The position numbers and the translations under genes are program-made. From assembly GCF_030013595.1 (NCBI RefSeq), contig NZ_CP122768.1: a stretch of 64,000 bases of DNA. One strand, written 5' to 3'. Source of the stretch: Escherichia coli (lineage in GTDB: Bacteria; Pseudomonadota; Gammaproteobacteria; Enterobacterales; Enterobacteriaceae). The notes beneath the pieces are model-generated. The model saw nothing but the letters and a program-made list of their open reading frames with translations, had not been told where the DNA came from and did no database searches. Of this stretch, positions 59,919-62,862 are shown in pieces (the first letter of the stretch is position 1; the number at the start of each line of letters is the position of its first letter).

Positions 59919-60159
59919 GCATTTGTTGACTGCATATCTTATTCGTACTGTCAGAACGAATAAATTATTCATATTTAAAATATAAATTAAATTTAACATC
60001 TTAAATATGAATGTTTCTGTTTTTAAAAAGCTTCTTTTGTCAGGCTTTTTTCTTATTTTTAATGCCGTAATTTAATTCATATTGAAGGGTTCTCGTAAAA
60101 CGTAAATAATTCCTGCGTAGGACTTTTGTTTTGCAGTTTTTACGTCACAAGGGATTATA

Positions 60160-62862
60160 ATGAAATTAAATATATTTACTAAATCTATGATTGGTATGGG
60201 GCTGGTGTGTTCCGCTCTGCCAGCATTGGCAATGGAAGCATGGAATAACCAACAAGGTGGTAATAAATATCAGGTTATTTTCGATGGCAAAATTTATGAA
60301 AATGCCTGGTGGGTTTCTTCTACAAATTGCCCGGGAAAAGCAAAAGCAAATGATGCAACTAACCCATGGCGTTTAAAGCGTACCGCGACAGCTGCTGAAA
60401 TTAGTCAGTTTGGCAATACACTTTCCTGCGAAAAGAGCGGCAGCTCATCTTCTTCAAATTCAAATACGCCTGCATCCAATACGCCGGCTAATGGCGGTTC
60501 AGCTACACCAGCACAAGGCACTGTTCCGTCTAATTCTTCTGTAGTTGCCTGGAATAAACAGCAGGGCGGTCAGACCTGGTATGTCGTCTTTAATGGTGCG
60601 GTATATAAAAATGCCTGGTGGGTAGCCTCTTCTAACTGCCCGGGTGATGCGAAAGGCAATGATGCCAGCAACCCATGGCGTTATGTTCGTGCCGCTACGG
60701 CAACGGAAATCTCAGAAACCAGTAATCCACAGTCCTGTACTTCAGCACCACAGCCTGCGCCGGATGTGAAACCGGCACCGGACGTTAAACCGGCTCCTGA
60801 TGTTCAGCCAGCCCCAGCTGATAAGTCAAACGACAACTATGCTGTCGTAGCCTGGAAAGGTCAGGAAGGTTCTTCTACATGGTACGTTATCTACAACGGC
60901 GGCATTTATAAGAACGCCTGGTGGGTAGGCGCGGCAAATTGCCCAGGCGATGCGAAAGAAAACGATGCCAGCAACCCATGGCGTTATGTTCGCGCGGCAA
61001 CAGCAACAGAAATCAGCCAGTATGGTAACCCAGGCTCCTGTTCCGTTAAGCCGGATAATAATGGCGATGCTGTGACTCCGGTTGATCCAACTCCGGAAAC
61101 ACCGGAAACTCCGGTGACCCCAACCCCGGATAACAACGAGCCATCAACACCAGCGGATAGCGGTAACGATTACTCATTGCAAGCGTGGAGCGGCCAGGAA
61201 GGTAGCGAAATTTACCATGTCATCTTCAATGGTAATATCTATCAGAATGCCTGGTGGGTTGGTTCTGAAGATTGCCCACGTGGCACTAGTGCAGAAAACT
61301 CCAATAACCCATGGCGTCTCGTGCGTACAGCTACCGCTGCGGAAATGAGTCAGTACGGTAACCCGACTACCTGTGAAATTGATAATGGCGGCGTCATTGT
61401 TGCGGATGGTTTCCAGGCCAGCAAAGCGTACAGCGCGGACAGCATCGTAGATTATAACGATGCACATTATAAAACTTCTGTCGATCAAGGCGCATGGGGC
61501 TTTGTCCCAGGCGGTGATAACCCGTGGAAGAAATACGAACCGGCGAAAGCATGGTCCGCATCCACTGTGTACGTGAAAGGTGATCGCGTTGTTGTTGATG
61601 GGCAGGCTTATGAAGCGCTGTTCTGGACGCAAAGTGACAACCCTGCTCTGGTTGCGAACCAAAACGCCACCGGTAGCAATAGCCGCCCGTGGAAGCCGTT
61701 AGGTAAGGCTCAGAGCTATAGCAACGAAGAGCTGAATAATGCGCCGCAGTTTAATCCAGAAACGCTTTATACCAGCGATACGCTGATTCGCTTTAACGGT
61801 GCGAACTACATTTCTCAGAGTAAAGTGCAGAAAGTTTCTCCTTCTGACAGCAACCCGTGGCGTGTTTTTGTTGACTGGACCGGAACCAAAGAACGTGTAG
61901 GTACGCCGAAGAAAGCGTGGCCGAAACACGTTTATGCACCGTATGTTGACTTTACGCTGAATACGATCCCGGATCTGGCTGCGCTGGCTAAGAATCATAA
62001 CGTCAACCACTTCACGCTGGCGTTTGTGGTGAGTAAAGATGCGAACACCTGTCTGCCGACATGGGGTACCGCTTATGGTATGCAAAATTACGCTCAGTAC
62101 AGCAAAATCAAAGCCCTGCGTGAGGCTGGCGGCGATGTGATGCTGTCTATCGGTGGTGCTAACAACGCTCCGCTGGCTGCTTCCTGTAAGAACGTAGACG
62201 ATCTGATGCAGCATTATTATGACATCGTTGATAACCTGAACCTCAGAGTCCTGGACTTCGATATCGAAGGCACCTGGGTTGCGGATCAGGCATCTATTGA
62301 ACGTCGTAACCTTGCTGTGAAGAAAGTGCAGGATAAATGGAAGTCAGAAGGCAAAGATATTGCTATCTGGTACACCTTGCCAATTCTGCCGACTGGCCTG
62401 ACGCCGGAAGGGATGAATGTCCTGAGCGATGCCAAAGCGAAAGGTGTTGAGCTGGCGGGTGTGAACGTGATGACAATGGACTACGGTAACGCGATTTGTC
62501 AGTCTGCAAATACCGAAGGCCAGAACATTCACGGTAAGTGTGCAACGTCTGCGATTACCAACCTGCATTCACAATTGAAAGGCCTCCATCCCAACAAGAG
62601 CGATGCAGAAATTGACGCTATGATGGGTACCACGCCGATGGTTGGCGTGAACGACGTTCAGGGCGAGGTGTTCTATCTCTCTGATGCTCGTCTGGTCATG
62701 CAGGATGCGCAGAAGCGTAATCTCGGTATGGTTGGTATCTGGTCAATCGCGCGCGACCTGCCGGGCGGCACTAACCTGTCTCCGGAATTCCACGGCCTGA
62801 CTAAAGAACAGGCACCGAAGTACGCATTTAGCGAAATCTTCGCGCCGTTTACTAAGCAATAA
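60160..62862 (+). CDS. chiA: periplasmic endochitinase ChiA (four N-terminal chitin-binding modules plus GH18-like catalytic domain)
   Basis: 900 aa with signal peptide, four repeated AWxxQxGxxxYxVxFxGxxYxNAWWV...NPWR modules, Pro/Thr linkers and a C-terminal catalytic region. Confidence 0.93.
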   Translation: MKLNIFTKSMIGMGLVCSALPALAMEAWNNQQGGNKYQVIFDGKIYENAWWVSSTNCPGKAKANDATNPWRLKRTATAAEISQFGNTLSCEKSGSSSSSNSNTPASNTPANGGSATPAQGTVPSNSSVVAWNKQQGGQTWYVVFNGAVYKNAWWVASSNCPGDAKGNDASNPWRYVRAATATEISETSNPQSCTSAPQPAPDVKPAPDVKPAPDVQPAPADKSNDNYAVVAWKGQEGSSTWYVIYNGGIYKNAWWVGAANCPGDAKENDASNPWRYVRAATATEISQYGNPGSCSVKPDNNGDAVTPVDPTPETPETPVTPTPDNNEPSTPADSGNDYSLQAWSGQEGSEIYHVIFNGNIYQNAWWVGSEDCPRGTSAENSNNPWRLVRTATAAEMSQYGNPTTCEIDNGGVIVADGFQASKAYSADSIVDYNDAHYKTSVDQGAWGFVPGGDNPWKKYEPAKAWSASTVYVKGDRVVVDGQAYEALFWTQSDNPALVANQNATGSNSRPWKPLGKAQSYSNEELNNAPQFNPETLYTSDTLIRFNGANYISQSKVQKVSPSDSNPWRVFVDWTGTKERVGTPKKAWPKHVYAPYVDFTLNTIPDLAALAKNHNVNHFTLAFVVSKDANTCLPTWGTAYGMQNYAQYSKIKALREAGGDVMLSIGGANNAPLAASCKNVDDLMQHYYDIVDNLNLRVLDFDIEGTWVADQASIERRNLAVKKVQDKWKSEGKDIAIWYTLPILPTGLTPEGMNVLSDAKAKGVELAGVNVMTMDYGNAICQSANTEGQNIHGKCATSAITNLHSQLKGLHPNKSDAEIDAMMGTTPMVGVNDVQGEVFYLSDARLVMQDAQKRNLGMVGIWSIARDLPGGTNLSPEFHGLTKEQAPKYAFSEIFAPFTKQ
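60232..61377 (+). repeat. four tandemly arranged, diverged ~200-bp coding repeats (chitin-binding modules) and an 18-bp x3 tandem repeat (PAPDVK linker, 60754..60807)
   Basis: Protein modules at aa 25-91, 128-194, 229-295, 340-406 are mutually similar; the 18-bp unit is repeated three times in frame. Confidence 0.8.

Follow-up and report, generated by a model that had tools for sequence, protein, structure and literature searches.

The chiA locus and its genomic context

The window analysed here, a stretch of 64,000 nt of Escherichia coli DNA (contig NZ_CP122768.1 of assembly GCF_030013595.1), contains at 60160-62862 an open reading frame (ORF) of 900 amino acids (aa), as had been given in an earlier note made from the sequence alone. 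Since near-identical matches annotated as chiA were found and E. coli K-12 carries the gene in the same locus between tufA and bfd, this ORF was identified as the chromosomal chiA (yheB) of E. coli. All counts of presence and polymorphism refer to the RefSeq 'complete genome' collection with 5426 complete E. coli genomes, in which a 3031-nt region was matched by megablast at 96.7-99.9% DNA identity in 3105 genomes, each annotated as chiA. The DNA identity of the window chiA amounts to 97.8% compared to K-12 chiA and to 99.9% compared to strain HCP5S3_I2. With great confidence, the locus is interpreted as chiA under its own silenced promoter, with a module array and linker microrepeats that change the length of the gene. 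The cassette comprises the following parts:

59892-59919, + strand: intrinsic terminator of tufA, left boundary of the chiA cassette (terminator scan: 12-pair stem, then a T-run)
59920-60159, + strand: AT-rich chiA regulatory region, 26.7% GC, a published target of H-NS silencing (composition, literature)
60160-62862, + strand: chiA (yheB) coding sequence, 900 aa, bifunctional endochitinase/lysozyme of glycoside hydrolase family 18 (GH18) (ORF list, megablast, Pfam)
62869-62892, + strand: intrinsic terminator of chiA, right boundary of the cassette

The gene is flanked by fusA and tufA on the 5' side and by bfd (63031) and bfr (63297) on the 3' side; the gene order in K-12 is fusA-tuf-chiA-bfd-bfr-gspO. 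ChiA/YheB of K-12 (b3338, NP_417797.1) resembles the window gene in its locus (tufA-chiA-bfd-bfr-gspO), its domain order and a protein identity of 98%, but it comprises 897 aa instead of 900 aa, the window allele having one additional TPE unit in linker 3. The chiA gene, its regulation and its domains are already known and the gene itself is ordinary. The additions made here are modest, namely a catalogue of chiA alleles and a tie of the N-terminal modules 1-4 to the docking domain of Chi2 from Yersinia entomophaga.

Architecture of ChiA

The coding sequence was divided as follows:

60160-60231, + strand: putative Sec signal peptide MKLNIFTKSMIGMGLVCSALPALA (read from the sequence: hydrophobic core, then A-L-A)
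60232-60438, + strand: N-terminal module 1, aa 25-93
60541-60747, + strand: N-terminal module 2, aa 128-196
60844-61050, + strand: N-terminal module 3, aa 229-297 (29-nt exact run common to modules 2 and 3)
61177-61383, + strand: N-terminal module 4 ('CBD4'), aa 340-408
61405-61875, + strand: three shorter CBM5/12-type modules, about aa 416-456, 462-514 and 528-572
61918-62853, + strand: GH18 catalytic domain, aa 587-898, with D699-x-D701-x-E703 at 62254-62268

With this order of signal peptide, four 69-aa modules, three shorter CBM5/12 modules and a GH18 barrel, ChiA is a GH18 endochitinase/lysozyme with predicted Sec export, which according to the literature is secreted by the Gsp type II secretion system. 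Modules 1-4 are each closed by a conserved Cys pair and parted by Ser/Pro/Thr-rich linkers. Four diverged N-terminal modules of about 67 aa had been described before, and four modules of 69 aa each were found, scoring 132-135 bits against their own hidden Markov model and showing 54-71% protein identity to one another. On the level of DNA they form the repeat family D1, whose copies start at 60223, 60532, 60835 and 61168, 309, 303 and 333 nt apart, and are 61-74% identical. Among 29 modules from several genera 18 positions were invariant, including W26-W27 and the pair C33/C66.

The three downstream CBM5/12-type modules and the GH18 domain had been overlooked in the earlier note, as had the 6-, 15- and 9-bp repeats described below. 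For the catalytic domain, the profile PF00704 scored 42 bits compared to a cutoff of 29.6, the PDB chitinases 9buf (E=7e-47) and 2dsk (E=7e-38) matched aa 587-898, and the DxDxE motif D699-F-D701-I-E703 was invariant in the alignment of five alleles. On the basis of its sequence, the catalytic domain is assigned to glycoside hydrolase family 18. Pfam reported one CBM_5_12 domain (aa 464-497) and GH18 (aa 612-812) for ChiA, while no NCBIfam model matched. The middle of the short modules reached 39.6-47.3 bits (E=5e-10) against CBM_5_12 with its curated cutoff of 26.2, and PDB 2d49 and 6z40 matched aa 462-516; the first short module remained below the cutoff with 17.4 bits (E=0.0045), and the third showed no Pfam CBM_5_12 match. 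In the literature, seven chitin-binding domains were counted in ChiA (PMC11486038), and binding of glycans, CHI3L1 and mucin is described.

Compared to CBM5/CBM12 (Streptomyces griseus ChiC ChBD 2d49, Serratia marcescens ChiB, B. circulans ChiA1 1ed7), modules 1-4 are about 20 aa longer, differ by a helix at the C-terminus and a Cys pair that forms a disulfide, and are detected neither by the CBM5/12 family PF02839 nor by profile-profile comparison. On the level of the fold, however, they meet CBM5/12 in a three-stranded beta-core with an exposed aromatic pair. A full-length relative of each of the modules 1-4 (69 aa) is the homologous N-terminal domain of Chi2 from YenTc of Y. entomophaga (PDB 6ogd, 9c4k), likewise located at the N-terminus of a chitinase subunit. 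Residues 24-92 of Chi2 matched positions 1-68 of 70 of the module profile with E=6.2e-20, and Foldseek gave a template modelling (TM) score of 0.81 at 41% identity. In contrast to the ChiA modules, the Chi2 domain is not repeated, carries YW/RW where the modules have the WW pair and is devoid of the Cys pair, and its known role is docking to the toxin subunit YenA1 and not glycan binding (PMC12705794). Altogether, modules 1-4 combine a CBM5/12-like beta-core with an additional helix and a Cys pair, and they form a subfamily with the N-terminal domain of Chi2.

Linker microrepeats and length polymorphism

Four short in-frame repeats were found in the window allele:

60336-60350, + strand: 6-bp repeat AAAAGC x2.5, K-A-K-A loop of module 1 (Tandem Repeats Finder, TRF)
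60460-60488, + strand: 15-bp repeat in linker 1, SNTPA x2 (repeat finder)
60754-60807, + strand: 18-bp repeat in linker 2, PAPDVK/PAPDVK/PAPDVQ, with 2-, 3- or 4-unit alleles
61089-61114, + strand: 9-bp repeat in linker 3, TPE TPE TPV (TRF)

The earlier note had described the 18-bp repeat as coding for PAPDVK three times with an exact unit length. The exact length was observed, whereas the third unit reads PAPDVQ and the threefold PAPDVK does not hold. The units, in order CCTGCGCCGGATGTGAAA, CCGGCACCGGACGTTAAA and CCGGCTCCTGATGTTCAG, are identical at 14/18, 13/18 and 12/18 positions, so that the length is exact while the sequence is diverged. A degenerate PAPADK comes after the third unit, and the TRF copy score of the array is 1.9. 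A literature search for yheB as a tandem-repeat locus or a locus of multiple-locus variable-number tandem-repeat analysis returned nothing relevant.

The module array is interpreted as having arisen by tandem duplication, and every linker holds a short in-frame microrepeat; from this combination it follows that the length of chiA can change in two ways. Slippage at microhomologies of 7-9 nt would add or remove units of 6, 9, 15 or 18 bp, and recombination at exact identities of 12-29 nt between adjacent modules would delete exactly one module period of 309, 303 or 324-333 bp. Both mechanisms, as well as any functional effect of the length, are inferred.

Both kinds of change were observed when five alleles were aligned and the collection of complete genomes was subsequently queried with synthetic alleles. 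Compared to the window allele, the 9-bp repeat of K-12 (897 aa) is shorter by one TPE unit, the 6-bp repeat of MDR_56 (898 aa) is shorter by one KA unit, and B771 (789 aa) has lost 111 aa via a fusion of modules 3 and 4. The variation of the linker between strains that had been anticipated was thus found across the 5426 genomes as alleles with 2, 3 or 4 units of 18 bp and as 6-, 9- and 15-bp variants. For the 18-bp repeat, among ~3120 chiA-positive complete genomes, three units were determined in ~3044 genomes, two units in 29 (a gapless match; for example 95-3322, 894 aa) and four units in 47 (for example cq9, 903 aa), while N3 alone showed a 6-bp deletion in the repeat region. The contraction excises unit 2 precisely between AAACCGGC repeats. 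The four-unit alleles are built in two ways: MB51 has unit 2 twice, and cq9 and 14EC029 contain the hybrid unit CCGGCACCGGATGTGAAA, which implies at least two independent duplications. In its annotation, the MB51 allele is marked as frameshifted. Altogether, judged by the structure of the alleles, the 18-bp locus shows at least two independent expansions and one contraction, and its variants are rare (2.4%) and found mostly in related-looking strains.

The commonest difference in length, 900 compared to 897 aa, is due to the 9-bp and not to the 18-bp repeat, the TPE unit being present and absent in a ratio of roughly 36:64 among the chiA-positive genomes. In 25 complete genomes the 15-bp repeat of linker 1 is expanded to three units, and nearly all of these genomes have the two-unit 18-bp allele as well; therefore, one lineage has both changes. 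All length variants observed at these repeats keep the reading frame. Length polymorphism across complete E. coli genomes is accordingly present at low frequency and located mainly at repeats other than the 18-bp repeat, and the forms of ChiA comprise 894, 897, 898, 899, 900 and 903 aa as well as three-module forms of ~789-799 aa.

A variable number of modules had also been suggested, and in-frame three-module genes were found in six complete genomes (~0.2%), to which a Shigella lineage is added. The fusions join modules 1/2 in four complete genomes, while ETEC1746 (796 aa) is the single complete genome with a 2/3 fusion and B771 the single one with a 3/4 fusion. In the Shigella lineage, the 2/3 fusion was found on 150 index blocks, a 5.04-Mb chromosome among them. 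The chiA of Shigella CP027027.1 has three modules and is frameshifted in the catalytic domain, leaving 701 aa and a remnant ORF of 95 aa; this pseudogene is widespread in the lineage. In orthologues of other genera, the number of N-terminal modules is 4, 3 or 1. One N-terminal module and C-terminal extensions of ~130-260 aa without a Pfam match are found in the orthologues of Citrobacter and Enterobacter, and in C. rodentium a second GH18 gene occupies the place of bfd after the chiA orthologue.

In-frame repeat variation is known as a general class in bacterial surface and secreted proteins. ChiA resembles this class in the copy changes of its Pro/Thr/Ser linkers with an intact frame, and likewise in the loss of repeated domains by recombination. 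In contrast to this class, the units of ChiA are diverged (67-78% identical) and the variation is rare, and no sign was seen of the rapid on/off or antigenic switching of true contingency loci.

Upstream region, promoter and silencing

In the regulatory region the following elements were located:

59967-60012: inverted repeat with perfect 12-nt arms, ATTCATATTTAA (59967-59978), a 22-nt loop and TTAAATATGAAT (60001-60012)
60075-60086, + strand: ATTCATATTGAA, third occurrence of the motif of the inverted repeat, overlaps with the -35 hexamer
60082-60110, + strand: sigma-70-like core promoter TTGAAG, 17-nt spacer, AATAAT (promoter scan)

The 240 bp upstream of chiA had been described as strongly AT-rich, which agrees with a GC content of 26.7% at 59920-60159 compared to 52% in the whole window and 50% in the chiA coding sequence. 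Only 0.09% of all 240-nt segments in the 64 kb are equally AT-rich, and the minimum of the window, 23.3%, is located upstream of chiA. The sole other place with less than 32% GC per 240 nt is 30506-30830 (minimum 26%). Upstream of the chiA orthologues in three other genera the GC content is 25-32%, so that the AT-richness is conserved.

The inverted repeat tcatatttaa/ttaaatatga noticed earlier is present and longer than assumed, its perfect arms comprising 12 nt. In 1000 dinucleotide-preserving shuffles of the 240 bp, the longest arm had a mean of 7.4 nt, and 12 nt were reached in 7/1000. Matches to ATTCATATTNAA occur three times in the 64 kb, all of them upstream of chiA. Across 8 E. coli/Shigella alleles, the arms and the third copy are unchanged, while the 22-nt loop has 6 variable columns and one 1-bp indel; strain AVS0528 shows a 1-bp deletion inside the loop. 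In three other genera, the DNA ahead of the orthologues does not contain the motif. Between 60072 and the ATG the 8 alleles show no variation, and the window allele agrees with K-12 there.

The start site of chiA was reported at 3467918 of NC_000913 and confirmed by 5' rapid amplification of cDNA ends (PMC3950696). The ATG of K-12 chiA corresponds to 3469853 in NC_000913.3. Allowing for the offset between NC_000913.2 and NC_000913.3, the start site is presumed to lie ~43 nt 5' of the ATG, near 60117 (±1 nt). This position falls ~7 nt past the -10 hexamer. Transcription would then start near 60117 from a weak sigma-70 promoter inside ~240 bp of DNA with 27% GC.

The suggestion that this region fits a silenced promoter is backed by published H-NS repression (PMC3950696, PMC5797941). 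PMC5797941 refers to chiA as 'another H-NS silenced gene' and states, with reference to Francetic et al. 2000, that the Gsp secreton, itself repressed by H-NS, exports its product; the attribution of H-NS repression to that study (Mol Microbiol 35:1506) is given here as reported by PMC3950696 and PMC5797941. In an hns stpA mutant, chiA is derepressed to a level similar to that with constitutive BglJ, and BglJ-RcsB activates chiA although a BglJ-RcsB box was not findable there (PMC3950696). Mutation of predicted sites ~150 bp upstream left the activation by BglJ-RcsB unaffected (PMC3950696). H-NS silencing of chiA is correct and already published; it is carried over from the literature, whereas the AT-richness was observed in the window. 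According to published work, H-NS, together with StpA, silences the chiA promoter, and BglJ-RcsB or the loss of hns lifts the silencing. A literature search on the control of chiA by NagC returned nothing relevant. A recent foreign insertion as the cause of the silencing was rejected, the GC content of the coding sequence being 50% and the order tuf-chiA-bfd-bfr-gsp being kept in other genera.

A second palindrome, TTATTCGT - 9 nt - ACGAATAA, is found at 59939-59963, directly 3' of the tufA terminator and ~155-180 nt ahead of the site where chiA transcription starts; it is nearly invariant, with one arm position differing in 2/8 alleles. It may be an operator. An Rfam scan of 59500-63300 gave no RNA element, but two sub-threshold matches of small RNAs over the tufA terminator (E ~0.75).

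Weighing of alternative explanations

Several observations weigh against the interpretation of chiA as a silenced gene with a length-variable array. The TPE indel tracks the allele identity classes and is therefore probably one old event and not recurrent slippage. Since the 2/3 fusions are abundant in drafts, occur once in complete genomes and coincide with the 29-nt identity of modules 2 and 3, many of them may be assembly collapses at this identity. Even at E<=10, modules 1-4 are missed by the Pfam profile CBM_5_12 (PF02839), and their hhalign comparison with the canonical ChiA module reached a probability of 2.7% over 19 columns, which is not significant; due to these two failures, the reading of modules 1-4 as carbohydrate-binding modules rests on fold similarity and the literature. 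For the window allele, silencing is taken over from the K-12 literature, and the chiA upstream region contained no site of the H-NS nucleation motif TCGATAAATT when up to 2 mismatches were allowed. The scan for this motif over the window yielded 72 sites compared to 55 expected, which is no clear enrichment and uninformative.

The length variants could also be sequencing or assembly artefacts, chiA being length-invariant save for old clade-defining indels. At least 63 clusters in protein databases consist of E. coli 2/3 fusions of 796-799 aa; these have several allele backgrounds, their crossovers fall into two or more intervals, and they originate mostly from draft contigs of ~41 kb and Logan assemblies; in the complete genomes there is 1 fusion of this type in 3122. 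A length of ~41 kb is what separates tufA, of which tufB is a near-identical second copy at another place, from the next repeat, and most crossovers lie within the longest exact identity of 29 nt, as a shortcut in a k-mer graph would also give. The 2/3-fusion proteins were consequently downgraded as proof of frequent module loss, only one such allele being found among complete genomes. The counts given here, however, were drawn from 'complete genome' assemblies, and each of the two-unit, four-unit and +15-bp alleles is shared by 25-47 genomes of varied hosts and laboratories with consistent flanking haplotypes. An 18-bp change within a 54-bp array is easily spanned by one read, the 2/3 fusion of Shigella is present on 150 index blocks including the 5.04-Mb chromosome, and the orthologues of other genera differ in their number of modules (1, 3 or 4) as well. 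An explanation by artefacts is therefore considered highly unlikely. The three-module entries annotated as 'carbohydrate-binding protein' in drafts may nevertheless be collapses.

Two further alternatives concern the function of single elements. The inverted repeat with the third copy at the -35 hexamer could be the operator of a specific transcription factor, beyond an AT tract bound by H-NS. Its perfect arms exceed the chance expectation, all three copies in the 64 kb sit upstream of chiA with one over the -35, neither the arms nor the third copy vary while the loop differs by substitutions and an indel, and no box was found for the activator BglJ-RcsB (PMC3950696). On the other hand, the 8 alleles are 98% identical overall, which makes the invariance of the arms weak evidence, and in the three other genera the AT-richness alone is retained and the motif is missing. 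Besides, the hns stpA mutant and constitutive BglJ lead to similar chiA levels (PMC3950696). The literature examined names no regulator for the inverted repeat. To our knowledge, there is none known for this site, and the assumption of a specific operator is regarded as unlikely. Modules 1-4, in turn, could be chiefly protein-docking and not glycan-binding domains. The Chi2 N-terminal domain is by far their closest solved relative (E=6e-20, TM 0.81), Chi2 docks to YenA1 via this domain with its N-terminal strand as part of the interface (PMC12705794), and both CBM_5_12 and hhalign fail on these modules. A chiefly docking role is considered most improbable. The interpretation of chiA as a gene behind a silenced promoter, whose array and linkers vary in length, is maintained.

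Presence of chiA, alleles and significance

Carried by 3105-3158 of the 5426 complete genomes (~58%), chiA is missing in ~42%; a published prevalence of 45-47% (PMC11486038) is of the same order of magnitude. In E. coli WP8-S17-ESBL-08, which lacks chiA, the terminator of tufA runs directly into the upstream region of bfd, the break extending from the T-run of this terminator (59919) to just beyond the chiA terminator (62892). The gsp type II secretion operon is gone too, except for a truncated prepilin peptidase gene that is followed by rpsJ. Chitinase and secretion system are thus jointly absent in this strain, and the upstream region of bfd is strongly diverged. Since the order tuf-chiA-bfd-bfr-gspO is kept in other genera, the absence of chiA in E. 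coli looks like a loss and not like an insertion elsewhere. In E. coli CH10982 (1972-6366 of its locus segment), chiA lies in two inverted halves between two copies of IS1, which looks like an inactivating IS1-mediated inversion.

The gene is studied as a colonisation factor of E. coli associated with Crohn's disease. The substitutions associated with adherent-invasive E. coli (AIEC) are located at positions 362, 370, 378 and 388 in domain 4 and 548 in domain 7 (PMC11486038), and the classes of 'pathogenic' and 'non-pathogenic' strains rest on these five residues, numbered on the 900-aa protein. The window allele shows Q362, E370, A378, V388 and A548. It shares Q362, E370 and V388 with the 'pathogenic' type of LF82 and differs from it by A378 and A548; it is neither of LF82 nor of K-12 type and belongs to the class 'other' in the scheme of Low et al. 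The different length forms and the absence of chiA in ~42% of the genomes affect residue numbering, typing by polymerase chain reaction and estimates of prevalence. Otherwise, the locus shows textbook behaviour with an AT-rich promoter silenced by H-NS and in-frame slippage in inter-domain linkers.

It could further be speculated that modules 1-4 are a distinct subfamily with the docking domain of Chi2 and not ordinary CBM5/12, and that the number of their copies (4, 3 or 1) together with the lengths of the linker repeats tunes the reach and strength with which secreted or surface-retained ChiA contacts host glycans or a protein partner, and thereby gut colonisation, which we regard as very doubtful. 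If true, the length alleles would add to the five published substitutions in the differences in colonisation between E. coli lineages, AIEC included.

Among the database entries, CHI11_METAN ('Endochitinase 11' of Metarhizium anisopliae, UniProt, 522 aa) shares 86% identity with E. coli ChiA across 57% of its length; most likely, the sequence stems from E. coli and was wrongly labelled as fungal. The N-terminal region of chiA also occurs in one record with the type plasmid, which could be a misassigned replicon or a real transfer. Downstream of the cassette, a second terminator-like hairpin was observed at 62904-62928, 3' of the chiA terminator, and a promoter-like site (TTGAAA, 17-nt spacer, TATTTT) lies at 62978-63006 ahead of bfd.

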